DNA of 47,814 nt from a virus (IMGVR_UViG_3300029305_003072); one strand, 5' to 3'; shown: positions 3 through 47,814, counted from the first letter of the stretch. The notes: generated from the sequence alone by a model not told the origin. Numbers and translations are program-made.

Positions 3-3000
3 CCTATCGAATACACTGTAAATACAGAAGAGGATGAACAAGAAAATAAGGAAAACGCTAATAAAACAGCAAGTAGAAATGCAACTTTAACTTCTTATTA
101 TCCAATTCCATACAGTGCTGGTAATTACTATATTGAAGGTGCAACAACTATTGTTTATGATAGTATGGGAAGTAATCCTTCTTATTATAAAGACCCATAT
201 AAGATTTTTACTTGTAATACAAATGAAAACCTTGCAGACAAGAAGATTATTCGTGCAGGTGTGGAATCTGATAAGCCAAAATATGATATCCTGTGGCGAA
301 TTGTTTATTATAAAAAAGATAAAGATGGTAAGGTTGTAAAACTAGATAAAAATATCCATGCTGATTATAATATTTGTCGTAGTTATATGCCCACTTTAAA
401 TGAGAAAAATGGTTTAAATGCATCAAATATGTACATGGGCAATATGGATTGTTGGTGCGCAGTTGAGTGTTGGTTAAAAGACCTTGAAACTGCTACTTAT
501 GATACTAAATATTCTTTAATTTGGGTTCAACCTATTTTTATCTTACAAAATCGCTATCCGTCTCCAATGCTGAACTCTTGGGATGGAAGCTTGACAATTG
601 ACAAAAAAAATGGTACAATATTATCATCATTAGTAGGTGCTGGTCGAAAAACTCGTGATAATACTTTTGAAGGTGTACTCATGGGAGATATCGAAGGCAG
701 TGCCGGAATCGTAAATGCTGGTAATAAATCTGGTTTAGGTATTTATGGTTTTAATGATGGCGCTCAAAGTTTTGGTTTTAATGTCGATGGTACAGGTTTT
801 ATTGGTAAATCTGGTAGAGGTAGAATTTTATTTAATGGTAATGAAGGTATTATTCAAAGCGCTTCTTATACAGCAAATGAAGATAAACCTTATGGTATGA
901 AACTTGACTTTGATGATGGTTGGCTTGAAATGCGAGGCGGCCTAGAGTATGATAATGATGATTGGGCAAATGAGGTTGTCAATCATTATAAGGAAATCCT
1001 TGCCGCAAAAGTATATAAAGTTGATGAAAATACTCAAGCATTAGTAGCAACTACAAAATATATTATTGATAGAGATATAATGGATTTGGATGTTCAAGAA
1101 GCATTGCTTGAAAAGATTAAGTATGATGCTGCTCATCAAGCAAATATGTATATTGAGGGTCGAGCCATTGCCAAAAAAGCTAAAGATAACGGAGAGATAA
1201 CTCAAGAAGAATATCAAAAGTTATTTGATGAGCTTTATGCTAAAGAGCAAGAGAAAAAATACTATGCAATGACTACATTAAAAACTGCTAGTATTGGAAG
1301 AGGTTTCTCTATTAATGACAAAGATTATGAATTAACCATAGAACAATATAATGCTATTTTAAATGAATTAGATGAATATATTTTAGCAGAAACTTATGAT
1401 GGTGAATTAAAAACTGATGCTGAAGGTAGAAAATTTAATTATAAGAGTAGATATGGTACTCTTTCTAAAGCTTTACAAGAGTTTGAGGCTCAAGGTCATA
1501 AAGTTCTTGGAGATTCAGAAGAAGCTAGTGATGTTACTTTAACTGAAGTTGAGGTTACAAATCAAAGTCATATTCGTTTAGATGTTAAATCTCCTTATTT
1601 CTATATTATTAGCGAATAGGGTAAACGTATTTTAAATATTGGTGATGGCACTGGATTTGACTTTGAAGATTATCCATATTTACAATATTCAATTGAAAAG
1701 TTCCAGCGAGATAAAGATGGAACAATTCTTTTAGTTAATTTAACTGATGAAACTGGTTCAACTATTAAAATTGAAGATATAGATGAGGCTAAAGAATTAT
1801 TAAATTCTGAATGTTCAATTTTAAGAAGTGATGCTTATAATCGTTTTTAGATAAAAAAGAGCATTACTCAAAAAGATTATGATAATATTTGTTTAGATAT
1901 TGAGGATTATCGTACTAAGAAATTAGCATATTTAAATACTTGGACAGAAGAAAATGCTGAAACTTTTATTGATAAGACTTATGAAGTTGAATATATTCAA
2001 AAAACTGGTTTTATTGGTACTGGTACACAAAAAACGAATTGGCTTGAACCTTATGGAAGAAACCTTTCTAAAGGTTATTATTTAAAATCTAATGATTTTA
2101 CTTATACTGCTTTTAGTAAAGAGGATGGTATTGCAAGCGGTCAAGGTTCAGGCTTTTTACTTGATTTAACAAATGGACACATTAATGCAGCAAATTTAAG
2201 CATTGCTTCAAAAAATGTATTTATTGATTCTGGTAAAAATGCTGACCCATTTTTTATTATTAAAGATAATGATGGATGTAATTTAATTTATGCTGGACAA
2301 TAGGATTTTTATATTCAATCTCATACATATTCAAGATATGCTCTTGGAGATAGGCTAACTGATGATAATGGTAAACAATATTATTATCCAGGTATGAAAA
2401 TTGATACTGATGGAAATAATTTTTTATTTGATATTAGAGGTAATTATCAATCAATAGTAAATATTAATAAGGATGAATTTTTCCTGCAAACTGATAATTA
2501 TAAAATTCGAGAATATATTACTATAACAAAGTGTTATAATCAAGATTATAGTATGAGTTTTGATATACAGGTCGGTAAAGCTGAAAAAGGACATATTATT
2601 TATACTGCACCAAATTTTAATAAAAAAAGTGAAAATGTTACGACTGAAGAACATACTTCTATTACTTTATATGAAAGTAAAAAAATTGATGGAATAATGT
2701 GGTATAAAATTAACACTGAGCAATGGATACCAGCATTATCTTTTGAATCGATTGAGGTAAATGATGAAGGTATTGGTACTGGTATAACTTATTTAAACCA
2801 AATTATTTATAGCGATTCTGATTATAATTCTATTAAAGTTGGTTTTACCAAAGATTCTCATGTTGCAGGTGTTAATATTTAGGCAACTAGAGCAGTTGAT
2901 GGAGTAGAGTGGTATGCTATTGAAGTACTTGAAGTTGAACATTGGCTACCTGATTATTCTATTAAAACTGGTTCTTATGGTTCTGGTATTAGATTGGATT

Positions 3001-4061
3001 TGTAGGGTGGCTATATTGATGCTTATGATTTTATTATTCGAGGTGAATCTAGCACAGACCCCACTGCAGGTTCTTATTTATTATTAGATAGTTAGACTCC
3101 GCAATTTGTAGTTCATTTAACTACTCCAGACAGTGATGGTATAATTGATTTAGATTTAATTAAAATTTCTCCAGATGAATTTTATTTACATTCTGCAAAT
3201 TGGTTAGAAACTACTACTCAAGTCACCACTTAGCGGACAGCTAAGATGGACGGCGGCTGGAATATTAGAAGCGGTCCTGGTATGGATTATTCTATTATCG
3301 GTTATTCTTCAAGTGGAAAAAGAGTGGTTGTATATGAAAAGCAGGGAGATTGGTACTGTATCGGAGAAGACTAGTGGATTTGGTATGAAGGTTTAACTGA
3401 TTTTCAAGAAGGTGGAACCGCAAATAAAACTTATGGCACTGGCATGGAAATTGATTTAAATGATGGTCGTATTACTGCATACAATGCCAATAATGCGGGT
3501 AAAGAATTATTAATTAATTCATTACATGATACATATCCAATTTAGCTAGGAGAAATTGGAGATTATAATTTCCAAATTGGTTGGGATGGTAGTTTAAAGG
3601 GCGGTAGTATTTATGGTTGGAGTATTGATGCAAGTGGTACTGCTACGTTTAATCGTTTGAATGCTAATGGTGGTGTTTTAAGTTGGATGTCTATCGGCAG
3701 TGCTAATATTTATGATGTTGATATTACTTCTGGCACAATTGCAGGTATGGACTTCACTACTGGAGGCATTACTGCAGGAGATTGGAATTTTAGTTCTAAT
3801 GGATTAAGTCATAATGGAAAAGCAATGGAAAAGAAAACTTATGATTCAGTGCGCTATATGTCTTTATGGACAAAAAAAATACCAGTAAGTGTTAGCGGTA
3901 GTTGCTCAATCGAAATTGATGGAGCTACTTATTATGGCTCATGCTCTGCTAGTGGAAATACTACTGAAGATGTAGGTTATAGAATTGGTTATGTAAAAAT
4001 GATTTATAATGGATATGGAGAAGAAGGTCAAGAGTCTGCAGTTGTATTTACACCAGCATAA
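3..4061 (+). CDS. Large tail-tip/baseplate-associated structural protein with three SH3-like cell-wall-binding modules (5' partial, at least 1352 aa, TAG=Gln)
   Basis: The frame is open from base 3 to TAA at 4059-4061 except for 9 in-frame TAG (1617, 1848, 2301, 2880, 3003, 3093, 3231, 3372, 3543). It joins track ORFs 165-1619, 2394-2882 and 3657-4061. An SH3b-type segment WNIRSGPGMDYSIIG...GDWYCIGED*WIW lies at about 3258-3390. G-rich beta repeats and tail-region context support the structural call. Confidence 0.8.
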
Positions 4062-4070
4062 GGAGGATTT

Positions 4071-4439
4071 ATGACAAATTTAGAAATTTTAAATTTTAAT
4101 GAATTATATAAACAAAATTTTCAAGAATTTGATGAATTATTACCAGCAAAAATTTTGTTTTATATTTATAAAAATTTATCATTAATTGAAATATCATTAC
4201 ATCATATTGAAAATACTAGAAATAGTATTATTCGTAAATATGGTTTAATTGATGAATCAAAAGATACTATTCAAATTCCTCCAGAATTAGTAAATGAAGC
4301 TAATAAGGAATTAGAAGAAGTTTTAAAAATGGAATAGGAAATTAATTTTTTTTTAATTCCTCTTTCATGGTTTGATAATATCAATCTTAATCCAAAGCAT
4401 ATGAAATTATTATGGATTATGATTGATGAAAATAAATAA
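4071..4439 (+). CDS. Hypothetical 122-aa protein, AT-rich paralog of the next gene (possible tail assembly chaperone)
   Basis: RBS AGGAGG. One TAG at 4335, and reading continues to TAA at 4437-4439. It aligns end to end with 4454-4822 (KME*EINF vs NIEQEVDI). Confidence 0.8.
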
Positions 4440-4453
4440 AGGAGAAAAAGGTT

Positions 4454-4822
4454 ATGACTATGACAAACTTTGAAATTTACAATATCGCTAAAGCTATGAG
4501 TGACGCCTTCCAGGATGGCACTCAGTATCTACCCGTTAAAGTAAATTTTTTCATTCAGAAGAATAAAGCTACTTTAATGTCTTTAGCACAAGATATTGAT
4601 AATTCTCGTATTGAGATTGTTAAGAATTATGGTACTATGGATGAAGAATCCAATCAGTTTATTGTACCAGAAGATAAGATTGAAGCTGCTAACGCAGAGT
4701 TGATGGACCTGTTTAATATTGAGCAGGAAGTTGATATTCGTAAGGTAAGCATTGATTCTTTCCCCGAAGATATTAATCTAACCACTGCTCAAATGGAAGC
4801 TTTAATGTTTATGATTGACTAA
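4454..4822 (+). CDS. Hypothetical 122-aa protein (possible tail assembly chaperone), TAG-free paralog
   Basis: Intact ORF with RBS AAGGAG, homologous to 4071-4439. The function is a guess from context. Confidence 0.8.
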   Translation: MTMTNFEIYNIAKAMSDAFQDGTQYLPVKVNFFIQKNKATLMSLAQDIDNSRIEIVKNYGTMDEESNQFIVPEDKIEAANAELMDLFNIEQEVDIRKVSIDSFPEDINLTTAQMEALMFMID

Positions 4823-4828
4823 TAAATA

Positions 4829-4858
4829 TTAGGCCAGGTAAATTCTTACCTGGCCTAA
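4829..4858 (+). other. Perfect 13-bp intergenic stem-loop lacking a U-tract
   Basis: TTAGGCCAGGTAA-attc-TTACCTGGCCTAA between the stop at 4822 and the next RBS. Confidence 0.7.
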
Positions 4859-4883
4859 CTTATTGCAGAGAGAAAGGAGATTA

Positions 4884-7847
4884 ATGATGTCAACTACTAA
4901 GTTATACCCTCCTTATGTGGATGCCGCAGTTCCTGCGCAGTTGGTTCCCGATGAAAGTACATCAGAAACAACTGTAACACTTACTATTCCATTTCAATTA
5001 AATAAGGCAGTAAGTTGGGTAGATTTAAAATCAAAAAATAATATCGCTTTGATTTTGAAAACGGTATCAACAGGAAAAGTTTTATTAGATTGTTATAAAG
5101 GAAACGTTTTAACTCATTATGAACCTACTGGAACACCTGCCGCAGAATTTGAAATTCCTAAAACTACTTTTAATCCTGTTGCAGGATAGTTTTATAAAGC
5201 TCAAATCGCTTTCATAGATTCTGATGATACTATTGGATATTTTTCAGATGTGACTATTGTAAAATTTACTGCAATTCCTGTTATAGGTATTGCCGATTTA
5301 GCAAGTGGAACAAATGCTGCTCAATATGTTTATACAGGTACATTTTCAACTACTGATGTTACTGAAAAAGTATACTCATATGAATTTAATATTTATGATT
5401 GTGAAACTGGTATTTTGCATGACACAAGCGGAGTTATGATTCATAATAGTAGCACAGATGTTGAACGAGGAAAATCTTTTGACACTTGGACATCTTATAA
5501 AACTTTAATTAATGAGCGTCAATATTCTATATGTTATAAAATCACTACTATTAATGGTTTAGTGATGGAAACTCCAGCTTATGGAATAATGGCAGTTGAA
5601 ACTTTAGATTTAGTTTCTAGAAACACAGAATTTATTGCAACATTATATAGTGATGATGCTTATATTCATGTTCATATTATGCCAAAAGATATTGATGCAA
5701 ATATTAAAGCAATTACTGGTAATTTTATTTTAGTTAGAGCATCCAGTGAAGATGGATTTGGTAGCTGGAATGAAATTTATCGTTTCACTTTGATTAATAA
5801 CTATCCTTTAATGACACTGTGGAAAGATTTTACGGTGCAACAAGGATATTCATATAAATATGCTGTACAAGCCTATAATTCTAAAGGTGTTTATTCTAAT
5901 CGATTAGAATGTAAATATTATGCTAGTGAATTTGATGAGCGCAATGATGACATTAACCGTTAGAATTGGAACGCAGAAGCAAAAGACCCTATTGAAAATA
6001 CTAACTTAAATTGGAATTATTTACAAGAAATTGATGGGTCTCCAACTCAAAGCGGATTGCCAGTAGATTTTGAAGATGCTTTTCTTTATGATGGAAAACG
6101 CCAATTGAGAATTAGATATAATCCAAAAATTAGTTCTTTTAAATCAACTGTGCTTGAAACTAAAATGGATACTATTGGAGGTAAATATCCTTTTATTTTC
6201 CGTAACGGAAATGTTGAATATAAAGAATTCCCAATTTCTGGTTTAATTACAATGATTAGCGATGAAAATGCTTTATTTATGGAGTATTCCAAAGAGAATC
6301 CAAAAGCTCGTCAGTACAGTACACATCCGCCATATGGTAATGATAATGCGGATTGGTGGGTCAGCCGAACTGGTATGACGGAGTATGAAGTTCGTAAGAC
6401 CCAAGAAAAAGAGTTAAGTGGTTCTCCCACAGCATTAACCGCTAGCAACTTCCGCAAAGAGCGTGAATTTAAAATGGAAGTGTTGGATTGGTTAACAAAT
6501 GGACAACCAAAGCTATTCCGTTCTCCAAGTGAAGGTAATTTTATTGTTCGTTTAATGAATACATCATTAACTCCAAATGATTAGCTTGGACGATTATTAC
6601 ATACTTTCCAATGTACTGCATATGAAATTGCGGAATGTAATTATGAAAATTTGGAAAAATATAAATTTATTCATGCTCTCGATACTAGTTATTAGGAATT
6701 GAAATTTAAAATGCTTGATTGCAATAATACTTTTGCTGACATTCATAATAGACAAATTATTATTGAGGGTGGTGCTTATTACTTTGCAGTAATAGACCAA
6801 TGGAGTTATTTGGCATTGAGAATTACTTATGTAAATGGTACATCACAAGTTATTGATGTTGGTAACTCTACTGGACAATATTTGTTTGACAGAGAAGCAT
6901 TAAAAAATAACCCAATTGTTTCAGTAACTTATCAAGAAGGTGCGCCAGATGTTGGTAGTAAAATTCTTTATGGATATTATGATACATCAGATATTGCTTT
7001 CTCTTTGATTGCAAGTGTTACAAGAGAAACAGTAGTAGACCAAATTATCGGTCATCCGCAAACTTCTTACCGTATAGATAGTTTTAAAATTAATTATGTT
7101 CCAACTATTTTAAATGGCATTGGATATAGAGACTTGGCTACAGATTTACAAAAGGTTTATGGCGAAGATGAAATTCCTCGTTGTACTCTTGGTAAATTTT
7201 ATTACTTAAAAGCTGAACCCAGAGAGATTACTTTCGTTTATAAAAAAGAAAATAAATATTATGAAACTTCAAAATGTGATTATGAGGTTCGTCAATGGGA
7301 TGATACTTATATTTATAAAGTTTTCGAAGAAAGTGATGGCACTTGGGAACCTACGAATCAATATAGTGGACGTCCTTCAAATAATATCTTATTACCAGAG
7401 CCAAGTTATCTCATTAAATTAAATGCAAAACCCAATAATGGTATTGACCCTGCTCAAGAAGAGTTTGTGGATTTAAGTTTAAAGGGCGGTAGCGGAGGTA
7501 ATGCTCCTATTACTACTGGACGATATGAACTTTATTTTGATTTGGATAAAGTAGAAAGTTTATATATTGGCTCAGGAGTTGTATGTGAAATTTGTTATAA
7601 TTTAAATACAATTCATTATGAAGCTGAAGATAATATTCAATATAGTGAATTGGTTGATAGATATAATACTTGGCAAAATCAGCAACGTCAATATAAGAGT
7701 ATGTTAAAAGCTGGATATAGTAGATTTAGTGCTGATGTCGAACGCGCTCGTATGAATATGGAACAAAGTTATCATTAGTATTTAAATCAGTTAGAATATA
7801 TTCTAAATAAGTTGCAAATGGATGGTGAGACTTATTATGCTTTATGA
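4884..7847 (+). CDS. Tail/baseplate structural protein (987 aa, TAG=Gln)
   Basis: RBS AAAGGAG before ATG 4884. There are 5 in-frame TAG (5187, 5961, 6582, 6693, 7776) and it ends at TGA 7845-7847. It joins four track ORFs, is Ig/FN3-like and beta-rich, and overlaps the next gene's start. Confidence 0.75.
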
Positions 7848-10479
7848 TAAAGAATTTTTGAAAGAATTAGACAAAACAAAAAATAAAATTGTCTATGCAA
7901 AAGTTACTGCATTAACAGTAGAGGAGTCCCCCATTGAAAGCATTGAAGGTCGTGTAACCCAGGGCTCCATCAACTTAGATGGAGCTTCTGCGGTTCGTCG
8001 TTCTTGTTCTTTATCAATTGTAGCAGAGAATTTTGATTATTCAGATTATTTATGGGGAATGAATACAAAATTTAAGTTAGAAGTTGGTTTACAAAATGAT
8101 ATAAATGATAATTTTCCCAAGATTATTTGGTTTAACCAGGGAATTTATATCATAACATCTTTTAATACATCTAGAACTACCAATAACTTTACTATTACTA
8201 TTCAAGGAAAAGATAAGATGTGTCTTTTGAATGGAGAAGTAAGTGGTACTATTGGAGTACAAACAGATTTTGGTACAATTGAAGAAGAAGATAATGAAGG
8301 AACTTGGACTATTAGACAAATTCCTATTCCTGAAATTATCCGTAATATGGTTCATGCATATGGCGGAGAGCCTTATCATAATATTATTATTAAAGATTTG
8401 GATACTTTAGGCTTAGAGCTTTTAGAATATCGATATGAAAATATGCCTTTAGTTATGTATCGTAAAGCTGAAAGTAATACATATACAAATATTGCTTTTT
8501 TAGATAGTGATATGTATTTATATGCTAATAAAAATGATGTCGGAAATGTAGATAGACGAGTATATTTAAAAGATATTCCCGATACACATTTTGAACAATT
8601 AATTGATGGTATTCATACAAGTGACCCTATTGTATATTATGATGATGATAAAGTTGGTTATAAATTAACTAAGCTTCAATACGGAGATACCGCAGGTTAT
8701 CGAACAACTGAATTAACATATGCTGGAGACTTGATTGCAAACGTAGGTGAATCAATTACTTCAGTTCTTGATAAAATTAAAAATATGCTTGTTGAATTTG
8801 AATATTTTTATGATGTTGATGGACGTTTTATATTCCAGAAGAAACAATCTTATACTCAGACTCTATGGTCTCCAAGTGGTGATGGAGAAGAGGGAATCAC
8901 AGAAGGTTTGTTATGGAGTGATGCAGCCGCATATACTTTTAGTGGCAGCGAATTAATCACTGGTTTTAATAATAATCCTAATCTTTTGAATTTAAGAAAT
9001 GATTTTTCAATTTGGGGTGAGCGCACAGGCATTAGCGGCGCGCAGATTCCCATTCATTTAAGATATGCCATTGATGAAAAACCAACTGCTTATACAACTA
9101 TTTCTTTAACTGATTTTGATAAGAATGAAGTGGATGAATATAATTTAAAATATGGAACTAATTTAAATAATAATCCTACTTCAATTACTTATTCTATTCA
9201 CCCAAATATAAGTAGAGCTAAGAATTATGTTTATGTAACCGATTGGCGAGAAGTATTGTTCCAAATGGCAAAAGATTATTTTAGATATAATACTTTAAGT
9301 GATTTTGAAATTCGTGTGCGCGAAGCTAATCCAACGCTCTATCCCTCTGGCCGCACAGGCTATGAACAATATTATACTGATATTCAAGTTTGCTGGCGTT
9401 AGCTATATAATCCTGAATTACGAAATAAAATTGCGGATTATACAGAAGAAGTTGCGGCATTAACGAATGAAGTGACTCAATTAGATAAAGAAATTAAAGA
9501 TATTGAGAATAGAATTATTGAGTTGAATAATCAATTAAATACTGCTACAACTCAGAGTTCAATTGATAGTATTGTTTTATCAATTTTATCAGAGCAACAA
9601 TCTCGCACTGATAAAAAAGCATTAAAATCTCAAAAAGAATATCTTATCGAACAAAAATAGGAAAGCTTAGATTCTTATAATGAAGATATTTTAAATTATT
9701 ATCAAGCTCAAGAATTAATAGAATTAGATGTAAATTTATTTACTACTCAATTCCCCTTATCTGACAGTTAGATTACTATTGATATTTTAGATAGATTTAG
9801 AGTTCCAAAAAATTTAATTGATGAACTTTTAGATGAGAAAACCGGTGAACCAATTGCTATTAAAGTTAGTGATATCCTTTACTTTAAAGAAGATGATAGT
9901 TATTTTTCTGTTATTAATAGTTTTGATGATTATGTAATAATTGCATATTATGATAAATCTCGTCTACATTGGCATAAAAATGTTTTTGAGAATCCTGGCA
10001 ATTTAAATTATTGGTTTGACTTTTTAGATACCGCAGGAGAGCTAAGCCAATATAGCGTACGAGCTATTGGAGCACGGACGAAAGCTATTAATGAAAATAC
10101 CGTAAAATCCATTTATTTTAGGGAAACTCCACCAGTTATTTTCGCACCAGATATTACTGATGACGAAAAAATGAGTGGTTATAAATATATTCAAATTCCA
10201 GAATTTGAAATGGATAAAATGTTTAGTATTAGTGCGCAAGGTAAATCCGCAAAAGAGCGCTTAGATGAACTTCTTTACAATCATGGTTATTGTACAGAAA
10301 GTGCAACTATTACAACAATTCCAGTATATTATTTACAACCAAACACTCGTATTAAAGTATCTGATGAAAAAACTAAAATTGATGGAGAATACATTGTAAG
10401 TAAACTTACAATTCCTTTAGCACATAACGGAACTATGTAGTTAACTACAACGAAAGCTGCATAGACACTATTCTTTTAA
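7837..10479 (+). CDS. Putative baseplate hub / tail-associated protein (880 aa, TAG=Gln)
   Basis: ATG 7837 with GGTGAG upstream, 5 TAG (9400, 9658, 9769, 10438, 10462), and TAA at 10477. The architecture resembles hub-type proteins (GSINLDGASAVRRSCSL, YFYDVDGRFIFQ, C-terminal PVYYLQPNTRI...GEYIVSKLTIPL) with a coiled-coil insert at about 9420-9700. Confidence 0.65.
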
Positions 10480-10494
10480 GAGAGGAGAGGTTTG

Positions 10495-12014: not shown

Positions 12015-12079
12015 TATGCGTAATTTCTTTCTTTTAAGAAATTAAGATATAATATACTTTTAAGAAAGGAGAGAATATT

Positions 12080-13561: not shown

Positions 13562-13575
13562 GGAGGACCTGAGAT

Positions 13576-39400: not shown

Positions 39401-39935
39401 GTTAACTAAAGCTGGTATTTTAGTTAATATTGGACCAATCTTTGGCTATAGATATAAACAAACTAGTAATGGCGCTGCTTTTATGTGGGATAAACCTGGT
39501 AGTAATTACACTGGTATGGGCGCTAATGATTCTAGTGACACTATTCAATTTAGAGCTTGCGATATCGCTGGTAATTGGGTAGATTATAAACAACATTGGA
39601 ATTTCTATGGTGATTTATTTGCTTATGGCGCAAGATTTGCAAATAGAGGTACTTCAACATCTACTTCTGCTTATAGTGATTCAGCAGTTGAAATTCGTGA
39701 ATACGGTTTTGGCGGCGCTCAATCTGATACTTGGGGAGTTGCTCCTCGTTTAAGTTTCCATTGGAGTGGACGTGTTGCAGCGCAAATAGGTCTTGCTTCT
39801 AACGGTAAATTATATATCAATAATAATACTCAAGGAAGTACTACATTCTTACAAATTGTCGGTATGACTGGCTATGGTACTGCAGCCCCATCTGGTGCAG
39901 CTCCTGCTGGTTCAGTTTATTTTAAATATAGTTAA
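36408..39935 (+). CDS. Long tail fibre protein, cassette 3 (1175 aa, TAG=Gln)
   Basis: 5 TAG (37164, 37596, 38031, 38568, 39123) join six track ORFs. The N-terminus MAQVNDLLVLG resembles MAQLRDLIVNG of 31694, with repeated GNATTA, WKTILDSGN and YLKLSGGTMTG motifs. Confidence 0.8.
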
Positions 39936-40171: not shown

Positions 40172-40216
40172 GGGATGGATAATGAAAATTTTTTGTATGG
40201 AAAGGAGACCTTACAT

Positions 40217-40657
40217 ATGTATTCCAACTATAATTATTATCCACAGCAACCTACACAGACTCCACAAGTCACCCAATAGCAATCAATGTACTAGATGCCC
40301 TATTTACGACAGGCGCCGCCGCAAACAGGACTGAAAGGCCGTTTGGTTAGTTCATTGGAAGAGGCCCGTGCAACCTCTATTGACTTCGATGGTTCTGTAT
40401 TCTATTTTCCAGATTTGGCGAACAAACGAATCTACACAAAACAAATAAATATGGATGGTACCGCTACATTATGTATGTATGAATTAAGGGAATTACCCAT
40501 TGAAAAAGAAGAGAGCGCTGTATTGCCATCCGTTGAGAAATTTGTAACGAGAGAAGAGTTTGAGCGGGTCTTGGAGTATATTAAATCACTTCAAAAGCCA
40601 ACCGAGCCGGCCGCACCCGCCCCGCAGAAACAGAAAGTAGAAATTTTATCATTCTAA
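40217..40657 (+). CDS. Six-gene module gene 1: hypothetical, Gln/Pro/Tyr-rich N-terminus (146 aa, TAG=Gln)
   Basis: RBS AAAGGAG before ATG 40217. Two TAG (40277, 40292) sit inside a Q-rich tract (VTQ*QSMY*MPY). The core reads GRLVSSLEEARA..IDFDGS.FYFPD..KRIY.KQ. Confidence 0.8.
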
Positions 40658-40667
40658 GGAGGTATGA

Positions 40668-40922
40668 ATGATGTATCCAGTAGACCCAAATGTTTTAATT
40701 CAAATGATTAAATCCGGGCGGAATCCTCAACAGTTGATGTTATCAATTTTACAAGGACAAGCCTATAACAATCCCCTCGGAAAAAATCTCCTAAATTTAG
40801 CTCAACAAGGTCGAACCGACGAACTAGAGAAAGTAGTTCGTAATATTTACGCTCAATAGGGCGGTTCTAATTTCGACCAGGAGTTCGAAGCCTTTAAACG
40901 TGCATTAGGCTATCAAAATTAA
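40668..40922 (+). CDS. Six-gene module gene 2: hypothetical helical protein (84 aa, TAG=Gln)
   Basis: RBS AAGGAGG, TAG at 40857, and reading continues to TAA at 40920-40922. Confidence 0.75.
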
Positions 40923-40942
40923 AATTTAAGGAGGACACAATT

Positions 40943-41665
40943 ATGTTTAATGGAAAAGGTTACAATTTATCTGATATCGCTGCTGTAACTGGTAATCGCA
41001 ATGGCGATGGTATGTGGGGCGATAATGGCTGGTGGATTATCCTGTTATTCTTGTTCGCAGGATGGGGCCGCGGCGGATTTGGCGGCTTTGGTGGCGGCTA
41101 TGAAGCACCTTGTGCTACCCAAGCTGATGTCCGTGCCGCAGTTGACCAGCAAACTTTAATTTCTAAATTAGACAACCAGACTTATGGTTTGGCAGATTCT
41201 ACTTACGCATTAAATAACTCTATTATGAGTGGTTTCCATGGAGTAGATACTGCTGTTTGCACTCTTGGCTACAATATTCAGAGTGGCTTTAACACTTTAG
41301 GTCACCAGATTAGTGATTGTTGCTGCGAGACTGGCCGTGCAATTGAGCGTGGCTTTGCAGAGACTAACTATAATATGGCAACTCAGGCTTGCGACACTCG
41401 TCGCGCAATCGCAGACAGCACCCGTGACATTATTGATGCTAATAATGCTGGTGTTCGTTCTATCTTAGACTTCTTGACTAATGATAAGATTGCTACTTTG
41501 ACTGCTGATAACCAATCTTTGAAGTTCCAGGCTTCCCAGGCCGCACAGAACGCTTACTTGGTAAATCAGTTACGTCCATGCCCAGTTCCCGCTTATACCG
41601 TTCCTAATCCCTACTGCTGCAATACCTACTTTGGTGGATGCGGCAATGGTTTCGGTACTTTCTAA
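40943..41665 (+). CDS. Six-gene module gene 3: Gly/Trp-rich hydrophobic N-terminal segment plus long Cys-containing coiled coil (240 aa)
   Basis: Intact ORF with GWWIILLFLFAGWGRGGFGG, CCCET, a heptad C-terminal half and terminal RPCPVPAYTVPNPYCC. Confidence 0.85.
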   Translation: MFNGKGYNLSDIAAVTGNRNGDGMWGDNGWWIILLFLFAGWGRGGFGGFGGGYEAPCATQADVRAAVDQQTLISKLDNQTYGLADSTYALNNSIMSGFHGVDTAVCTLGYNIQSGFNTLGHQISDCCCETGRAIERGFAETNYNMATQACDTRRAIADSTRDIIDANNAGVRSILDFLTNDKIATLTADNQSLKFQASQAAQNAYLVNQLRPCPVPAYTVPNPYCCNTYFGGCGNGFGTF

Positions 41666-41684
41666 TCTAAAGGGGGTTTAATTT

Positions 41685-42104
41685 ATGGAAATTATTGCTA
41701 ATGCTCTTCAGACAGTTCCAGCAAATCAAAATGTTTATTTCACTGATACTGTGATTTGTGGTAATGCTACGATTGGTCATCGTGATGATAGTGGTTTAGT
41801 TACTCTAAGAGGTTTAACCGACCAATGCCGGGCTAGATTCCGTGTTTCTTTTGGAGCTAACATTGGACTACCAGCGGACGGAACAGTTGGCCCAATTTCT
41901 TTAGTTATTGCTATCAATGGTGAGCCTGTACGTGCTACTACTATGACAGTAACCCCAGCGGCAGTTGAGCAATTTTTCAATGTATATGCTTCTTTATATG
42001 TCGATGTTCCTCGTGGATGCTGTGTAACTATTAGTGTTCAGAATATTACAACTGATGATGTTGATGTTCAAAATGCTAATTTAATTGTTGACCGCACCGC
42101 TTGA
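41685..42104 (+). CDS. Six-gene module gene 4: all-beta protein, possibly BclA-C/C1q-TNF-like (139 aa)
   Basis: Intact ORF with an alternating beta-strand pattern (GLVTLRG..FRVSFGANI..ISLVIAINGE..TISVQN..NANLIV). The fold is inferred. Confidence 0.7.
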   Translation: MEIIANALQTVPANQNVYFTDTVICGNATIGHRDDSGLVTLRGLTDQCRARFRVSFGANIGLPADGTVGPISLVIAINGEPVRATTMTVTPAAVEQFFNVYASLYVDVPRGCCVTISVQNITTDDVDVQNANLIVDRTA

Positions 42105-42118
42105 AAGGAGGAATAAAT

Positions 42119-42754
42119 ATGCATGAAGAAAGATTAAAGCATATGAAAGAAACTCTAATGTGTGCTGTTGAAATGCAGCTATGTGATTTAGGTGAGGTAG
42201 ATACCAAAGAGCTTGGAGAAGCTATTGATATGATTAAAGATTTAGAGGAGGCAATCTACTATTGCACCGTCACTGAAGCTATGAAAGGCAATGGCTCAGA
42301 AATGGAGTTTGAAATGAAAAAAGGCGGCCATCACCAAGAGGAAAATGGTGACAGCCGCATGTATTATAGTGGCTCTCGCTATCCAATGATGTACGCCGAC
42401 GAGGGACGTCGTCGTAGAGCTGATGGAACCTTCTATAATGACCCAATGTATATGGACGGCGGGTCTGGAAATGGTACCAGTTATATGGATAACGGAACTA
42501 GTCATATGGACCGTGGAAACGGAACCATGTATCGCGATGAGCGTGAGGGCCGCAGCTACAATAGCCGCAGAATGTATATGGAAGCCAAAGATATGAAGAG
42601 AGATAAAGCTACTCAACTTCGTGAGTTAGAGAAGTATATGCAAGAGCTATCTCAAGACATCACTGAAATGATTGCGGACGCATCTCCAGAGGAGAAAGCA
42701 TATCTTGAAAAGAAGATTACCGCATTGGCTTCTAAAATCGGTCAAATGAAATGA
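42119..42754 (+). CDS. Six-gene module gene 5: hypothetical with helical ends and a Met/Tyr/Asp/Gly-rich low-complexity centre (211 aa)
   Basis: ATG 42119 after RBS AAGGAGG (the track starts at upstream TTG 42101). It has repeats MYMDGG / SYMDNG / HMDRG / MYRDE. Confidence 0.8.
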   Translation: MHEERLKHMKETLMCAVEMQLCDLGEVDTKELGEAIDMIKDLEEAIYYCTVTEAMKGNGSEMEFEMKKGGHHQEENGDSRMYYSGSRYPMMYADEGRRRRADGTFYNDPMYMDGGSGNGTSYMDNGTSHMDRGNGTMYRDEREGRSYNSRRMYMEAKDMKRDKATQLRELEKYMQELSQDITEMIADASPEEKAYLEKKITALASKIGQMK

Positions 42755-43062
42755 TTATCAATGGAGTGAGATGGCGAGTCCGAATGGTCTCGCCATCTCA
42801 TCCAATGCTACTAACCCCTTGGATGACTCATGCTCTTGGAGTTTGTGATAAAGTTACGCAAACTATTTACATAGACAAGACGCTCAAACCAGCTAAGGTT
42901 AAAGAAGTGCTATGCCACGAAATTGTTCATGCTTGTATGTTTAGCTACGCAGTAGATTTATCATACGATGAAGAGGAAATGGTAGCAGAATTAATGTCTA
43001 AATATGGAGACGAGATAATCAAATGGTCGAATAGAATTTATAATGGAATTAAAATGAAATAA
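42751..43062 (+). CDS. Six-gene module gene 6: small HExxH zinc-metallopeptidase-like protein (103 aa)
   Basis: LCHEIVHA motif with downstream EEE, and ATGA overlap with gene 5. Confidence 0.7.
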   Translation: MIINGVRWRVRMVSPSHPMLLTPWMTHALGVCDKVTQTIYIDKTLKPAKVKEVLCHEIVHACMFSYAVDLSYDEEEMVAELMSKYGDEIIKWSNRIYNGIKMK

Positions 43063-43109
43063 AAAAAGGGTCGTATATGATTTATTCATATACGACCCTT
43101 TATTTTTTT
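43061..43109. terminator. Bidirectional intrinsic terminator where the two transcription directions converge
   Basis: A-run, then GGGTCGTATATGA-tttat-TCATATACGACCC, then a T-run, between convergent stops at 43062 and 43108. Confidence 0.85.
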
Positions 43110-43707
43110 ATGTGCAAATAGCCCACCCAGTAGATGTACCATCTTTGTTAATATATGGAATAGCAACTTTCCATCCATTAGCAGTTCCATCAACATTGAC
43201 ATATGGTATTGCACTCTTCCATCCATTGGCAGTTCCATCAATATTAATGCGAACTAATCCTCCACCATTAATCACTGTACCTCCATAAGTAGAGCTATCT
43301 CCTCGGTTTCTGATAATAACAATAGTAGGATTTGATTTACGAACAAAATGAAATCTAAAAGTTACTGTTGACCCAGCGGCTACATATACTCCTCCAAATG
43401 TAAAAGTTTTTTGTTCCGTATTATAATAGTTTCCTCCGCTAGTTTTATTGCTTACAGTAATTGTATTGGACGTATGCGATGTTCCGTTAGAATCAGTAAC
43501 AGTTACATAAACATCATATGCATATCCATATCCAGTAACAGTATCTCCCTAATTGTATGTTCCATTACCTGAAGCAAGACCTATTCTGCATGCAGTTATT
43601 AGTTGAGGTGTAGAACCAGTATTTTTATATTTGAGTAAATTTCTACTATAAGTAGCATCTATGCCCTAATAAGAAAAACTCCAATCACTATGAGTACTCC
43701 ATCCCAT
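43108..43707 (-). CDS. Small fibre-associated/virion protein with C-terminal 16-aa repeats (199 aa, TAG=Gln); missing from the ORF track
   Basis: RBS AAGGAG, ATG at 43707, 2 TAG (codons 14 and 53), TAA at 43108. The C-terminus reads INIDGTANGWKSAIPY-VNVDGTANGWKVAIPY-INKDGTSTGW. Confidence 0.75.
43117..43248 (-). repeat. 48-bp tandem repeat (two full copies plus one partial) encoding the 16-aa repeat
   Basis: 43153-43200 and 43201-43248 are near-identical, and 43117-43152 is a diverged partial copy. Confidence 0.8.
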
Positions 43708-43733
43708 TATCTTTTCTCCTTTATCTCTTTTTT

Positions 43734-43780
43734 AATAAAAAATTTGGTGAAGTAAAAATATAAAATTACTTCACCAAATT
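43734..43780 (-). terminator. Intrinsic terminator-like hairpin after the holin-like gene
   Basis: AATTTGGTGAAGTAA-loop-TTACTTCACCAAATT (15-bp stem) followed by TTTTATT on the minus strand. Confidence 0.7.
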
Positions 43781-43785
43781 ATGGT

Positions 43786-44256
43786 TTAGACAGGAACCTC
43801 ATCGTCAGTCTTTAAAGGTAAAGCAATTGCCTTATTATAATAAGTTTCAGCTTGACCATTTCCACCTAAGCCTTTATATAATTTATAGAATTCCATTAAT
43901 TGTTCCATCTGGGATTCAGTAATGTATTCTTGGCGTAAAAATCCTTTGCACAATTGGATTAAACGGAAACGGTAAGAAGCAACAATTAAGTTCATATGAG
44001 ATTTCTCTAAGTTCTCATTGTCGCGGCAATACTTTCTTAAATCTTCTAATTCTTGATAAATTGGTTCTAATTCAACTTCAATGTGAGTACCAATTCTTTC
44101 ATCAAGCTTTTGTTCTGCAATAATACGAGCATTTTCTTCGGCTTGGAGTTTTTCTTTCTTTAATTTATCACCATGCCATTTTGCCCAACCCATTACAATA
44201 GCACTAATTAGACCGAACAAAATTTCTGTTCCCCACTCTGCTAAAAGAGCTTCCAT
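43786..44256 (-). CDS. Putative holin-like / lysis-associated membrane protein (156 aa)
   Basis: Single N-terminal hydrophobic helix (ILFGLISAIVMGW), a coiled coil and a C-terminal YKLYKGLGGNG motif typical of a phage family often found beside lysis genes. No endolysin is present in the window. Confidence 0.5.
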   Translation of the reverse strand: MEALLAEWGTEILFGLISAIVMGWAKWHGDKLKKEKLQAEENARIIAEQKLDERIGTHIEVELEPIYQELEDLRKYCRDNENLEKSHMNLIVASYRFRLIQLCKGFLRQEYITESQMEQLMEFYKLYKGLGGNGQAETYYNKAIALPLKTDDEVPV

Positions 44257-44282
44257 AATAAAAGTTTTCCCCCTTTCAACTT

Positions 44283-44333
44283 CTCTATTGGATAATAAAA
44301 GAAGTGAAAGAGGGATTATCTAGTTAAGACCAA
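44283..44333 (-). promoter_or_regulatory. Recurrent upstream motif copy 6 (TTGGTC-N39-ATAGAG), minus strand
   Basis: Overlaps the last codons of the RuvC-like gene, precedes the holin-like gene, and contains AGATAA. Confidence 0.45.
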
Positions 44334-44809
44334 TCGAATACTTCGACTTTATTATTTACATAGTGAGCACCAATACAAATAGCATCACACTCATCTTGAG
44401 TAGGTTTTACACCATAAGTTTTTTCAACCCAAGCCTATGCGGCTTTCTTCTGGGCTGGACGGTCTTTACCCTTAATACCAAGAGTAGATTTCCAAACGGT
44501 TGAAAGAACTGCGGTTCGAGGCATCTTTAATGTTACAAATAATTCATATAAAACACCAAAGACTTCTGCTAATGCTTTAAAAGTTTGAACATTGTTTGCA
44601 ACATTGCCTTGAAGCTAAATATCTTCAAAAACAACTTCATCAATATCATATTCATTAATGAGTTGATTTACTTTACTCCGAATAAAGTGAAGTCTATCTC
44701 CAACATCAGAATGGTCAGCAGTAAACTTACCATATTTTAGAAGCTTACCATCTTCAAATATGGCCCAGCCGCTTGTTCGGCTTGCCTAGTCTAATGCTAA
44801 AAGACGCAT
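44324..44809 (-). CDS. ruvC: RuvC-like Holliday junction resolvase (161 aa, TAG=Gln); missing from the ORF track
   Basis: ATG overlaps the dut stop (TAATG). The sequence MRLLALD*ASRTSGWAIF...VVFEDI*LQ...WK..LG...K...QDECDAICIG gives the RNase H-fold acidic set D7, E62 and D/D. There are 3 TAG (codons 8, 65, 125). Confidence 0.85.
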
Positions 44810-45348
44810 TACTTAGATGTGGAGCCAAAACCGCCAGTGCGCTCTCCACCTGCGACGTCATCTTCAGTAACGCCATAGGGAAGAATAATAGCCTGACCAA
44901 TGGCCTCTCCCTTTTTAATCTGAATATTAAATGGAGATAGATTATAAATCTGGAAGAAAATTTCTCCTTCATTATCGGGATTGTTATAATAGTCAGCATC
45001 AATAACGCCGATACCATTACCCATCATTAACCAATATTTTAGAGGAGAAGAGCTACGAACACTCAACTGTAACCAAGTAGTCGGGTCAAGTTTGCATTTC
45101 ATTCCAGTAGAAACAAGAGTTGGCTTGAAACCAGTCTCTTTTGTAAATTTAGACATAAGGTCCATAGTTACGAACTCATCATCGCCTACAGGCCATAATT
45201 CTTTAGCTTCTGCAACCATTTGCCATACAGAAGGAATTATATAATCCTCTGCGGCAACCATATCATATCCTGCGGACTGTGCAGTCTTTCTGACCGGCAT
45301 AGCGATGTCCACATCTATATATTTAGAAACTTTTTCAAAAATAGCCAT
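44809..45348 (-). CDS. dut: Trimeric dUTPase
   Basis: All five motifs are present: SAGYDM, LVSTG, RSS, GVIDADYY/GQAI and RTGGFGST. Confidence 0.95.
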   Translation of the reverse strand: MAIFEKVSKYIDVDIAMPVRKTAQSAGYDMVAAEDYIIPSVWQMVAEAKELWPVGDDEFVTMDLMSKFTKETGFKPTLVSTGMKCKLDPTTWLQLSVRSSSPLKYWLMMGNGIGVIDADYYNNPDNEGEIFFQIYNLSPFNIQIKKGEAIGQAIILPYGVTEDDVAGGERTGGFGSTSK

Positions 45349-45353
45349 TTTTA

Positions 45354-45596
45354 TTAACCCCTTTCATAAGACACAACAAACATATCTTCGGGGTCTTTTT
45401 CTGCAGTAAACTGCTTAGTAGCTTGAACTACCATATATTCTTCAACCACTTGACCCTTAGCCTTAATCTGCTTTACTTTATAGCTAAAGCCAACTAAATC
45501 AAAACAAGGGTCATTTAAAAGCTCTTCATGTAAAGCTTCAACTGCGGCCTCATCGGGCACTCTATAAGTATCAACAGCTTTTAACAAATATCTCAT
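45354..45596 (-). CDS. Hypothetical protein (80 aa)
   Basis: Intact ORF in the operon, with its start overlapping the upstream stop (ATGA). Confidence 0.75.
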   Translation of the reverse strand: MRYLLKAVDTYRVPDEAAVEALHEELLNDPCFDLVGFSYKVKQIKAKGQVVEEYMVVQATKQFTAEKDPEDMFVVSYERG

Positions 45597-45847
45597 TTTA
45601 TTACCTCTACTTTATAATTATATTCACTGACCATTAACATATCAAGTAACATATAGCACATATTAATATTGCCAGATATTTTAATATTATTTATTAAGTA
45701 TTTTTCACATAGCAATATAATATCTTCTGTTATTTGCTAAATATTATTGGTATTATTAGTTTTATCCATAATTAAAATTTCATTTTCATATATACAAGTT
45801 TGGTAATTATTATTATCTATGAAAAAAATATATAAATATTTATCCAT
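45593..45847 (-). CDS. Hypothetical AT-rich paralog of 45847-46125 (84 aa, TAG=Gln); missing from the ORF track
   Basis: TAATG overlap at the start and ATGA overlap at the end, with TAG at codon 37. It shares IxxLC...IxGN and the terminal VEVIK with its neighbour. Confidence 0.7.
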
Positions 45848-46125
45848 TATTTAATTACCTCTACTTCAATATTATTCCAATTATAATGTTTCTTTGAATA
45901 AGCAAGAATGTCCTCAGACACAGCTGCTCCATAAACACTATTGCCAGCAAGAGTTACTTTATATACTTTTCTTGCATCACAAATAGCACTAATTACTTCT
46001 GGTAGCTCTTCCAAAGTGGTAATTGCTACACACTCTTTGTCACCAGTACTTGGATTTACAACATAAACATTCTGATGTAAATCAAACATATGAATTTCGC
46101 AATATACTCTTTTCATTTCATTCAC
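45847..46125 (-). CDS. Hypothetical protein (92 aa), TAG-free paralog
   Basis: Intact ORF ending in IEVEVIK. Confidence 0.75.
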   Translation of the reverse strand: MNEMKRVYCEIHMFDLHQNVYVVNPSTGDKECVAITTLEELPEVISAICDARKVYKVTLAGNSVYGAAVSEDILAYSKKHYNWNNIEVEVIK

Positions 46126-46612
46126 CTACCTGAACAATTCCACTATCATAGGGGAATAAGTATAAACAAGTTGGTTCACCGTCTTGAGGCTGAACCCAAA
46201 TCTCAACGGCATCGCCAGCCGCAGTCAAATCCATAGCTTTAACTAAACCAACATTTAAACAGCAATCAAGAACATCTTCACCAAGATATTGAGGTTCAAT
46301 AATCTTAAATACTGTGAAATAAGAAATTTCTTTACCATACAACATAAAATATTTATTATGGTAAGTTTCATATAAGGTCCAAATATCATCCATCGCCTTA
46401 CTAAAATCTTCAAGAATAGGCAATTGAGAAATGATTTGTTTATTCATATCATATAGACCCATATTAATACCGCCGCTCTCCATCTTGATTTCATTCCAGG
46501 CACCTTCGTGCCAAATCATATATTTACCTTCAGGAGTCTGAACTAACTCACCTTCGGTAGGAGTGTAGCGGATTTGAGAAGGGTCAATCTTCTTGATTTT
46601 TAGGTCACCCAT
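46118..46612 (-). CDS. Hypothetical protein (164 aa)
   Basis: Intact ORF with RBS AAAGGAG, directly downstream of a consensus promoter. Confidence 0.8.
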   Translation of the reverse strand: MGDLKIKKIDPSQIRYTPTEGELVQTPEGKYMIWHEGAWNEIKMESGGINMGLYDMNKQIISQLPILEDFSKAMDDIWTLYETYHNKYFMLYGKEISYFTVFKIIEPQYLGEDVLDCCLNVGLVKAMDLTAAGDAVEIWVQPQDGEPTCLYLFPYDSGIVQVGE

Positions 46613-46645
46613 ATCAAATCTCTCCTTTATCTCATTTATACTAAT

Positions 46646-46674
46646 ATTATATCAATTTTTTTTAGATAAGTCAA
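46646..46674 (-). promoter_or_regulatory. Near-consensus sigma70/SigA promoter (TTGACT-N17-TATAAT, extended -10 TG)
   Basis: The minus strand reads TTGACT tatctaaaaaaaattga TATAAT, embedded in the last codons of nrdG. Confidence 0.8.
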
Positions 46675-47134
46675 TTATTCTCTGATTACGTGAACCTCTC
46701 ATTTCAAGAGTAATATCACGCTCTTCTTCAATATAAGGACCATCAATTAGGTAATCCGCAAGCTCTAGCGCATGCCGCACTTGAGGATGACTTGCGTGTT
46801 GTAGTTGTTCATATGTATAACCACTCCAGATATATATCTTTGCTCCTGGAACTTTCTCTTTAACCTCTTTGACTACCAAATAGGTAAGGAAAGCATTTTC
46901 GTCACAAAGAGGTTCACCGCCCATGATACACAAATTTCTCTGTATACCCTGGGCGGTCAGTCCGGAAATAATCTCATTTAAAGTCCCAGTAGTAAATTCT
47001 TTTCCTCGGTTGAAATCCCAAGTTTCTGGATTATGGCAGCCTTTACATCTATGCGGACAGCCTTGTGTAAAAAAGCTCACACAAAGACCGGGGGCCGCAG
47101 AAATATCATTTAAAATTAAACCACTATAATTCAA
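46652..47134 (-). CDS. nrdG: Anaerobic ribonucleotide reductase activating protein (radical SAM)
   Basis: FTQGCPHRCKGCHNPETW (CxxxCxxC), GGEP, DGPY and RGSRNQR, adjacent to nrdD. TTG start with RBS AAGGAG. Confidence 0.95.
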   Translation of the reverse strand: MNYSGLILNDISAAPGLCVSFFTQGCPHRCKGCHNPETWDFNRGKEFTTGTLNEIISGLTAQGIQRNLCIMGGEPLCDENAFLTYLVVKEVKEKVPGAKIYIWSGYTYEQLQHASHPQVRHALELADYLIDGPYIEEERDITLEMRGSRNQRIIDLSKKN

Positions 47135-47158
47135 GGGAATTTACTCCTTTCGTATGAG

Positions 47159-47183
47159 CGTAGCTAACTTGTAGTTAGCTACG
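47159..47183 (-). other. Perfect 10-bp stem-loop between nrdD and nrdG (no U-tract)
   Basis: CGTAGCTAAC-ttgta-GTTAGCTACG. Confidence 0.6.
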
Positions 47184-47184
47184 A

Positions 47185-47814
47185 TTAACTAAATTTACTA
47201 TGTTTGATGCGGTGTTCAACCTCTGACTGTTTTCCTTTGTTAAAATGATGATAGTCAGTAGTTAAATAACCAGTAACACGACGCAGCTGTTGAATGTTCT
47301 CACTGCCGCACTCGGGACAAGCATCATTGAACTCGCCCTGGTAGCCGCAATCTAAACAAGAGTCGATTGGGAAATTAAAAGCTAAATAAGGAATATTTAG
47401 TTCTTTAAATGCGTAGTCAATAATCTGCTCAATAGCCTTGGTATTCTTTACAAATGTAGAATCTAATTCAACATAAGTAATGCATCCGCCAGTAGGATAC
47501 TTACAGAAAGGAGACTCAACAGCTAATTTCTCAAAGATACCAATTTCATACCATACAGGAACATGGTGACTATTGGTTAAGAACTCATGGTCAGTAACAT
47601 TAGGAATAATACCATACTGCTGACGCAAAGCCTTTAATGCGGTATGACATAAACCTTCGGCGGGAGTTGCATAGCAAGAGAAGTTTAAGTCATGGCGCTC
47701 AGAAGCTTCTTTAGCGTATTCGTTAATTCTCTTAACAACTTTCAAAGCGAACTCGCGCACATTCTCATCTTCAGCATGATTCTTGCCGAATAGAGCCTGA
47801 CACATTTCTGCGAT
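47185..47814 (-). CDS. nrdD: Class III anaerobic ribonucleoside-triphosphate reductase, C-terminal part (5' end beyond the window)
   Basis: YATPAEGLC finger loop, TNSHHVPV, GGCITYVE, a Zn site CLDC..CPEC and the glycyl-radical motif RRVTGYL. The frame is open to the window end. Confidence 0.95.
   Translation of the reverse strand: MAEMCQALFGKNHAEDENVREFALKVVKRINEYAKEASERHDLNFSCYATPAEGLCHTALKALRQQYGIIPNVTDHEFLTNSHHVPVWYEIGIFEKLAVESPFCKYPTGGCITYVELDSTFVKNTKAIEQIIDYAFKELNIPYLAFNFPIDSCLDCGYQGEFNDACPECGSENIQQLRRVTGYLTTDYHHFNKGKQSEVEHRIKHSKFS

Follow-up and report, generated by a model that had tools for sequence, protein, structure and literature searches.

The five-letter word CCGCA, together with its complement TGCGG, is 4- to 6-fold more common than the encoded proteins and their codon usage require in a 47,814-nucleotide stretch of viral DNA (IMGVR_UViG_3300029305_003072; the window). 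A first-pass annotation had proposed that selection acts on this word at the level of DNA, and that proposal is well supported by enrichment in all frames and on both strands, by codon-preserving nulls, by the lack of enrichment of neighbouring words, and by recurrence of the word in related phages. The window corresponds to positions 53406-101219 of a virus record that is 105,768 bases long (G000; CheckV completeness, 56%) from a large uncultured gut or rumen phage, a TAG-recoded siphovirus of the virulent type whose genome is about 190 kb as estimated from the CheckV value. As the best of several readings, we tentatively propose that the word is a Chi-like signal read by a host nuclease of the AddAB type.

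Results

CCGCA/TGCGG exceeds codon-preserving expectation in every frame

The word was originally noticed in a hand count of at least 63 CCGCA and about 30 TGCGG on the plus strand, or roughly one site per 500 bp, against rough expectations of about 9 and about 15. Exact counting gave 65 and 30, with the first site at 1003 and the last at 47638-47642, and exact mononucleotide expectations of 11.3 and 17.7, and the strong excess stands. The control word CCGCT, reported at about 15 copies even though GCT seemed at least as common an alanine codon as GCA, was found 16 times (CCGCC, 12; CCGCG, 4), and GCT is the commoner of the two codons (GCT, 437; GCA, 314; GCC, 82; GCG, 50). In the whole record, there were 153 + 128 copies of CCGCA/TGCGG versus 44 + 49 of CCGCT/AGCGG. 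A plain order-3 Markov model returned a z of merely 4.3, because the sub-words CCGC and CGCA share the excess.

For the main null, genes were called with TAG as Gln and synonymous codons were shuffled within each gene (400 shuffles), which keeps both the proteins and the per-gene codon usage. Against this null, sense CCGCA was observed in the window 67 times versus 14.6 expected (z = 13.7; rank 1 of 1024 pentamers; shuffle maximum, 31), and sense TGCGG was observed 28 times versus 13.6 expected (z = 3.9; rank 14). A stricter null additionally fixes the base after each codon and thereby removes context effects of the type NNC followed by G; sense CCGCA retained rank 1 (67 versus 23.9; z = 8.8). 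The first-pass annotation had named two outcomes that would count against selection, namely loss of the enrichment once amino-acid pairs and codon usage are preserved and equal enrichment of CCGCT, CCGCC, and CCGCG. The enrichment survived, and all three control words were at expectation under both nulls.

Sites had also been claimed to occur in other frames, and all three frames proved to be enriched: 4, 44, and 10 copies were observed versus 1.2, 9.8, and 1.6 expected, with the rare-codon frames (CCG and CGC) accounting for the 4 versus 1.2 and the 10 versus 1.6. Across the record's 63 kb of coding DNA, the word was enriched in either orientation (82 versus 21.2 and 54 versus 23.2), and none of the 15 one-letter variants of the pentamer was enriched in either orientation. 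Codon opportunities for sense CCGCA were taken ∼15% of the time versus 2 to 3% for CCGCT and CCGCC. The strongest form was the hexamer GCCGCA/TGCGGC (6.0-fold sense, 3.8-fold antisense, and 4.8-fold overall), with the other three 5′ neighbors at 1.7- to 2.4-fold; the heptamers GGCCGCA (11 versus 0.8) and GCGGCCG (6 versus 0.6) were also over-represented. RNA genes do not account for the word: the 106-kb record proved to be free of tRNA genes, and the window matched no Rfam family.

The sites are dispersed, and their strand bias belongs to the tail and baseplate genes

Site spacing was near Poisson (coefficient of variation of the gaps, 1.1); gaps no longer than 40 bp numbered 13, versus ∼8 expected (p = 0.05). 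The sites, their closest groupings, and the enrichment in each gene module were as follows:

1003-47642: all 95 copies (65 CCGCA and 30 TGCGG on the plus strand), ∼1 per 500 bp, 95 of 95 within genes
17118-17130: inverted pair TGCGG-GCG-CCGCA, at the beginning of the gene for a 2683-aa virion protein
28467-28486: tight trio CCGCA, TGCGG, CCGCA inside 20 bp
30529-30538: back-to-back inverted pair TGCGGCCGCA (TGCGG then CCGCA)
40175-42754, plus strand: maximum density of the late block, in small genes with 4 to 8 copies per kb (per-gene table)
43108-47814, minus strand: minus-strand gene block, sense CCGCA 3.6-fold and sense TGCGG 3.5-fold, about equal
Head module: sense CCGCA 2.7-fold, sense TGCGG 2.8-fold
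Tape-measure gene: sense CCGCA 1.4-fold, sense TGCGG 1.2-fold
Tail module, first part: sense CCGCA 6.3-fold, sense TGCGG 2.4-fold
Tail module, second part: sense CCGCA 3.1-fold, sense TGCGG 1.6-fold

The claim that sites are present in both gene orientations thus holds, with the qualification that the 65:30 strand bias is a property of the tail/baseplate module and not of gene direction as such. The raw cumulative curve was V-shaped and suggested a sharp polarity switch near 50 kb of the record (post hoc p = 7e-6). This was rejected as a clean switch, because correction for codon opportunity leaves the head module symmetric and the tail module alone biased. In a complete 190-kb relative (G307), sense CCGCA was likewise 3.9-fold enriched versus 1.9-fold for TGCGG in the structural block, and the remaining blocks were symmetric.

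A primase or packaging site was among the functions first listed for the word. T7-type primases recognize the pentamer 5′-(G/T)(G/T)GTC-3′. Such sites share with the word a length of five bases, a possible strand preference, and a 3′ cryptic base that can be read into CCGC-A, but here both orientations are enriched in most modules, and we know of no primase that needs several-fold enrichment of its site. Known DnaG primases read trinucleotides, which argues against a phage primase of that kind as the reader. A primase signal would be enriched on the lagging-strand template only; the sense bias observed was confined to the late block, the other modules being symmetric. A single packaging site would not account for 95 scattered copies. 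DNA uptake sequences (DUS/USS) also differ from the phage word: they are 9 to 12 nt long, are in hundreds-fold excess in competent Neisseriaceae and Pasteurellaceae, and often form terminator pairs, whereas the phage word is 5 to 6 nt long, is in 4- to 6-fold excess, and is confined to genes.

Related phages retain the GCGG/CCGC core and the number of sites

We collected relatives from 80 IMG/VR loci with 52 to 76% portal identity and codon-shuffled the 45 distinct ones on ∼20 kb each. A comparison with related phages had been called for at the outset, and the word or close variants of it were found in most of the 45. CCGCA/TGCGG was among ranks 1 to 5 of 512 strand-symmetric pentamers in 28 of them, and the other leading words were close kin (GCCGC, CGCAA, GCGCA, CCGCG, GCGGA, and ACCGC). 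Over its whole genome, G307 favored the same hexamer as the window (4.4-fold; TGCGGC, 79 versus 18.2; GCCGCA, 54 versus 12.0), with the other NCCGCA forms at 1.2- to 1.4-fold. A second complete relative (G309) uses WCCGCR (that is, YGCGGW), as seen for CCGCG (252 versus 105), ACCGC (303 versus 145), and GCGGA (354 versus 187), and in G309 GCCGCA was not enriched (39 versus 32.6). In G308, the CCGCA excess was faint (200 versus 133) and AGCGCA leads. The GCGG/CCGC core is therefore stable among sister clades and the flanks differ (TGCGGC, YGCGGW, and TGCGC). The excess was absent from the distant phages Phass-1, Enterococcus EF1, and Lactococcus phiL47.

Turnover of individual sites was measured by aligning 16 kb of the head region to a relative at 75% nucleotide identity. 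Conservation of sites (14 of 45, 31%) was close to the 29% found for control pentamers with four G/C, and the relative retains 41 sites within the aligned DNA. In more distant relatives, 0 to 26% of sites were conserved versus 11 to 19% for controls, and the extra conservation of single sites that we looked for in the aligned relatives was not found. Sites thus turn over at the background rate while the relative keeps a similar number; what selection maintains, if it is selection, is site density and not site position.

These patterns bear on three explanations other than a host Chi-type enzyme. It is rather unlikely, though a serious alternative, that a phage-encoded protein reads the word, as a start site for the replisome or primase, through a late-transcription or elongation factor, in genome compaction, or as a nuclease that spares marked DNA. 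In that case, word and reader specificity would co-evolve within the phage lineage, which would suit the presence of the word or its variants in phages from many samples and the switching of flanks among sister clades, GCCGCA here and in G307 and WCCGCR in G309. The sense-form excess that is ∼2-fold stronger in the late/structural block of two phages and symmetric elsewhere hints at late expression or packaging, and a relative with a different host, Bacillus phage FADO, shows a mild TGCGG/CCGCA excess (48 versus 25; rank 7). However, no candidate protein was found, Phass-1, EF1, and phiL47 lack the excess, and in a bacterium described below (G001) this word is likewise over-represented, with a strand skew. 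A signal acting on transcripts alone would not account for the antisense and early-gene copies, which are enriched too.

An unlikely variant is that the word is a self-mark, by which a phage enzyme (a nuclease, replisome loader, or packaging factor) tells phage from host DNA through a private, fast-evolving word of 5 to 6 letters. Word and reader would in that case have diverged among the sister phages to give the two forms seen here and in G309.

We consider it very unlikely that the word has no reader and arises passively, from a context-dependent bias in mutation or repair of the very-short-patch (VSP) kind or from a codon-pair preference. Turnover at constant density would also fit a stationary mutational process, and a good part of the excess in G001 is codon context. 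Against this, the excess appears in all three frames including the rare-codon ones, extends to the antisense strand, and survives a null that fixes the codon and next-base context; moreover, sister phages of similar composition carry different words. VSP words (CCWGG type) need depleted T-for-C neighbors, and the T-variants predicted by VSP repair are mostly undepleted here (TCGCA, 30 versus 30.4; CTGCA, 68 versus 80.8; CCACA, 16 versus 18.4). CCGTA alone is low (8 versus 22.3), and these 14 copies are far below the excess of ∼60.

A second enriched word family, GACCC/TGACC/AGACC, was seen across hosts: record-wide here (GACCC, 49 versus 17.1), in G307 (TGACC, 129 versus 54), in phiL47 (AGACC, 123 versus 66; L128 and L129), and in EF1 (L131). 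This family may reflect a codon context shared by the whole lineage, or else a further signal.

A proposed Chi-like signal for a host AddAB-type nuclease

Among the functions listed at the start, a Chi-like recombination signal fits best, as a candidate; a primase site and a phage protein that organizes the genome are further candidates. The word is a dispersed, dense signal that would be under selection at the DNA level, with CCGCA/TGCGG as its core and GCCGCA/TGCGGC as its optimum. A host helicase-nuclease of the AddAB type could enter at a free double-strand end, which might arise from genome injection, from cleavage of a concatemer, or as the tail of a rolling circle. On meeting 5′-TGCGG(C)-3′ on the 3′-ended strand, the enzyme would stop degrading the DNA and instead protect the end and promote recombination. 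Copies spaced a few hundred bases apart, on one strand or the other, would lead it to treat phage DNA as it does host DNA. If TGCGG is read like AGCGG, the late-block sites would be oriented toward an enzyme that comes from upstream of the structural genes and travels with transcription. This direction would be expected of a nuclease at the terminase-proximal end or chasing a rolling-circle tail and is opposite to that of chromosomal fork repair. We infer that AddAB is the reader and that the stronger sense CCGCA of the late block guards against a nuclease arriving from the terminase-proximal side.

Chi sites are over-represented in the host chromosome and skewed toward its leading strand. The moving enzyme reads them in single-stranded form, from their 3′ side, and its nuclease is then attenuated in favor of RecA loading or the protection of linear DNA. 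Known Firmicute Chi-like words include 5′-AGCGG-3′ in B. subtilis, 5′-GAAGCGG-3′ in S. aureus, and 5′-GCGCGT(G)-3′ in L. lactis (PMC8022716), and TGCGG(C), YGCGGW, and TGCGC look like members of this series. The phage word shares with these sites that it is short and asymmetric (within the 5 to 8 nt of Chi words, with all five pentamer positions specific and a hexamer optimum), GC-rich, built on a GCGG core, dispersed, and kept by density, and in one Lachnospiraceae genome with putative AddAB genes this word is in excess and skewed to the G-rich strand. It differs in starting with T and not A and in preferring a 3′ C, and its recognition by AddAB is putative.

Phages are known to accumulate or strongly avoid the host Chi, depending on how they handle the host nuclease (PMC3784561; PMC12315714), and we tentatively take the phage word as a case of such Chi-type accumulation. 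We calibrated this by the same method on two phages. In the B. subtilis phage SPP1 (NC_004166; L222), AGCGG was enriched (75 versus 46.7; rank 9 of 1024), and the plus strand, which carries most annotated genes, has 89 copies of it versus 39 of the complement. In FADO (OM236516.1, 60001-160000; L126 and L127), AGCGG/CCGCT was avoided (4 versus 31; rank 504 of 512). From SPP1 enrichment and FADO avoidance of AGCGG, it follows that pentamers of the form NGCGG are strongly selected for or against in phages of Firmicutes. The lambdoid phages (PMC3784561) and LLS, P1, and others (PMC12315714) similarly carry a host-type word beyond compositional prediction, and there too related phages split into rich and avoiding ones, as SPP1 and FADO do for AGCGG. 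Those systems differ from the present one in that the word is the RecBCD 8-mer of enterobacteria and the phages are temperate lambdoids of ∼45 kb, as opposed to a 5- to 6-mer in a ∼190-kb TAG-recoded siphovirus of the virulent type. As side observations, the top pentamer of SPP1 was GCGGC (112 versus 50), with GCAGC/GCTGC and CCWGG absent, and FADO also avoids the restriction-type words GATCC, CCTGA, CGACG, CCAGC, and GGCCA.

A Lachnospiraceae genome with Chi-like statistics for TGCGG

Clostridia are probably the hosts of the phage. Portal similarity groups it with large Firmicutes siphoviruses, namely Phass-1 (37%) and Enterococcus EF1 and VRE9 (29%), together with Brevibacillus Sundance, Bacillus FADO, PBC2, and Nate, and the Lactococcus 949 group, and the predicted hosts of Phass-1 are Clostridia (PMC10607447). 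To survey bacteria, we scored 80 folD loci from many phyla against dinucleotide expectation; AGCGG, the positive control, was ∼2-fold enriched in two Bacillus loci. The two highest TGCGG/CCGCA ratios, both strand-asymmetric, were in Lachnospiraceae loci, and a third Lachnospiraceae locus had a 1.4-fold excess with the same asymmetry. In a roe-deer rumen Lachnospiraceae metagenome-assembled genome (MAG) that is the sole species of its own genus (G001), sense TGCGG was the first-ranked pentamer of 1024 over 209 kb of coding DNA (478 versus 239), and CCGCA stood at 287 versus 190. The word was also 2-fold enriched in 21.6 kb of noncoding DNA (50 versus 24.4), where it was the top GC-containing word outside ribosome-binding-site words. 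Of 14 G001 loci, 12 had more TGCGG on their G-rich strand than on the other, with replication direction taken from GC skew alone and in a genome not linked to the phage. PF12705 (PD-(D/E)XK) was found in open frames of ∼900 to 1290 aa, the size range of AddA/AddB, in five of five Lachnospiraceae genomes including G001, and in G003 and G004, two such frames adjoin on one contig. Under the Chi-like reading, the host would belong to a lineage of this kind.

A number of observations weigh against a Chi-like signal or against this choice of host. The excess in G001 lies mostly in one frame (NNT GCG GNN, 369 versus 158), and TACGG, TGTGG, GGCGG, and TTCGG, T-N-N-G-G-type words among them, are likewise enriched; because one frame dominates and similar words share the enrichment, part of the G001 excess is codon context. 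Three other Lachnospiraceae genomes (G002-G004) gave z values of just 3 to 4, with TGCGGC not special there. Spacer-like matches in 301 Lachnospiraceae genomes were at chance level only, the two best lying outside repeat arrays. The folD gene did not point to a donor lineage either, as the best identity was 44% and matches were spread over many phyla. In the phage itself, the tape-measure gene is hardly enriched (13 versus 10.3), unlike its neighboring genes, and on the sense strand of the late block, which is the G-rich one, it is the C-rich form that is favored, opposite to the simple expectation for fork repair. The phage excess of 4- to 6-fold exceeds every Chi excess we measured in a bacterium and is much above that of AGCGG in the Bacillus loci. 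The word travels with the phage lineage through several habitats, which could equally mean a phage-encoded reader.

The relatives also differ from the Chi-rich phages without a Rec module described by Zheng et al. (2025; PMC12315714), a class defined by the lack of both a phage recombinase and an inhibitor of RecBCD/AddAB. A Sak4-like AAA_24 protein is encoded in four of them (three complete; E values from 1e-40 to 1e-45), whether or not they carry the word. Searches for RecA or a PD-(D/E)XK nuclease gave no match. The Rec+ Inh- class of Bobay et al. is a possible alternative class for the phage.

A whole-genome TGCGGC excess relative to a reversed control word (7-fold in G002) was rejected as an artifact, since the control has two CpGs and codon shuffles show nothing special. 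By codon shuffle, the top hexamer of G002 (L060, L098-L104) was TGCCGG (79 versus 22.6; z = 11.9), which may be its own selected word. A full-length FolD (methylene-tetrahydrofolate dehydrogenase/cyclohydrolase) is encoded upstream of the window on the minus strand (L002:1944-2756); none of the bacterial copies found exceeds 44% identity to it, and it is hence not a recent capture.

Host defenses other than AddAB

The word could instead counter another host system, as a "self" site for a nuclease, a restriction-like system, or CRISPR adaptation, or as the target of a host-encoded protective modification; we regard this as distinctly unlikely. The genome is shaped by host nucleases: GATC occurs once versus 142 expected in the 63 kb of coding DNA, and ACGT (49 versus 116) and CTAG (91 versus 152) are depleted. 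The relatives with different word variants also differ in GATC avoidance (0 copies in the coding DNA of G307, 160 in G308, and 335 in G309), and close relatives seem to face different restriction systems. On the other hand, restriction targets are usually avoided and not accumulated, and the phage word is enriched, which is likewise at odds with a restriction-modification or phage methylation target. The modification target that had been suggested found no backing: searches for the C5 and N4/N6 methyltransferase families (PF00145 and PF01555) gave no match in the record or in the relatives G306, G307, G308, and G309, of which three are complete. Apart from Chi, literature searches found no system that rewards a dense 5- to 6-mer.

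Significance of the word

In the literature searched, no paper connects TGCGG with Chi or with phages. New in this work are statistics controlled for codon context, the hexamer optimum, the test of density versus position, word variants that differ by clade among complete relatives, calibration on SPP1 and FADO, and a first bacterial genome with Chi-like statistics for TGCGG. Just a handful of Chi sequences are known (PMC8022716). If the word is a Chi-like signal of gut/rumen Clostridia, phage genomes would expose the words of uncharacterized AddAB enzymes, the clade-specific variants (TGCGGC, YGCGGW, and TGCGC) might aid host assignment of uncultured phages, and the "accumulate or avoid Chi" rule would take in large recoded phages of anaerobes as well as lambdoid coliphages. 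With a phage-encoded reader, the word would be a new means of marking viral DNA and, as a self-mark, a sequence-based self-recognition of a kind undescribed for phages. Whichever the reader, the word is strong, specific, and cheaply testable with oligonucleotides.

Gene content of the window and its surroundings

No near-identical record turned up among GenBank phages when 20 kb of the window were searched by megablast. TAG is a sense codon in the late genes, and reading it as Gln fuses the open reading frame fragments of translation table 11 into genes of 750 to more than 1300 aa. The genes concerned are the following:

1-4061, plus strand: 3′ part of a TAG-recoded 7.6-kb gene, next after the tape-measure gene, with a word density (1.44 per kb) below the window mean
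3-4061, 4863-7847, 7822-10479, 28886-31303, 31694-33946, 33962-36388, and 36408-39935: genes fused by TAG=Gln in gene calling
G000 40351-49698 (L003:351-9698): tape-measure gene, 3115 aa with 51 in-frame TAG, just upstream of the window

The four operon genes between 40943 and 43062 (40943-41665, 41685-42104, 42101-42754, and 42751-43062) contain no TAG. The large terminase, the portal, and a phage sigma factor are encoded upstream of the window.

The early region (G000 1-20000, locus L001), also upstream, is 20 kb of 45% GC with small genes mostly on the minus strand. Alternative genetic codes were tried on this odd region, and none opens reading frames there. Each of its genes is preceded by a near-identical cassette of a TTGACA-N17-TATAAT promoter and leader, giving ∼29 sigma-70-type promoters. 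The early region has the highest word density (5 per kb), with just 3 of 115 copies inside the promoter cassettes.

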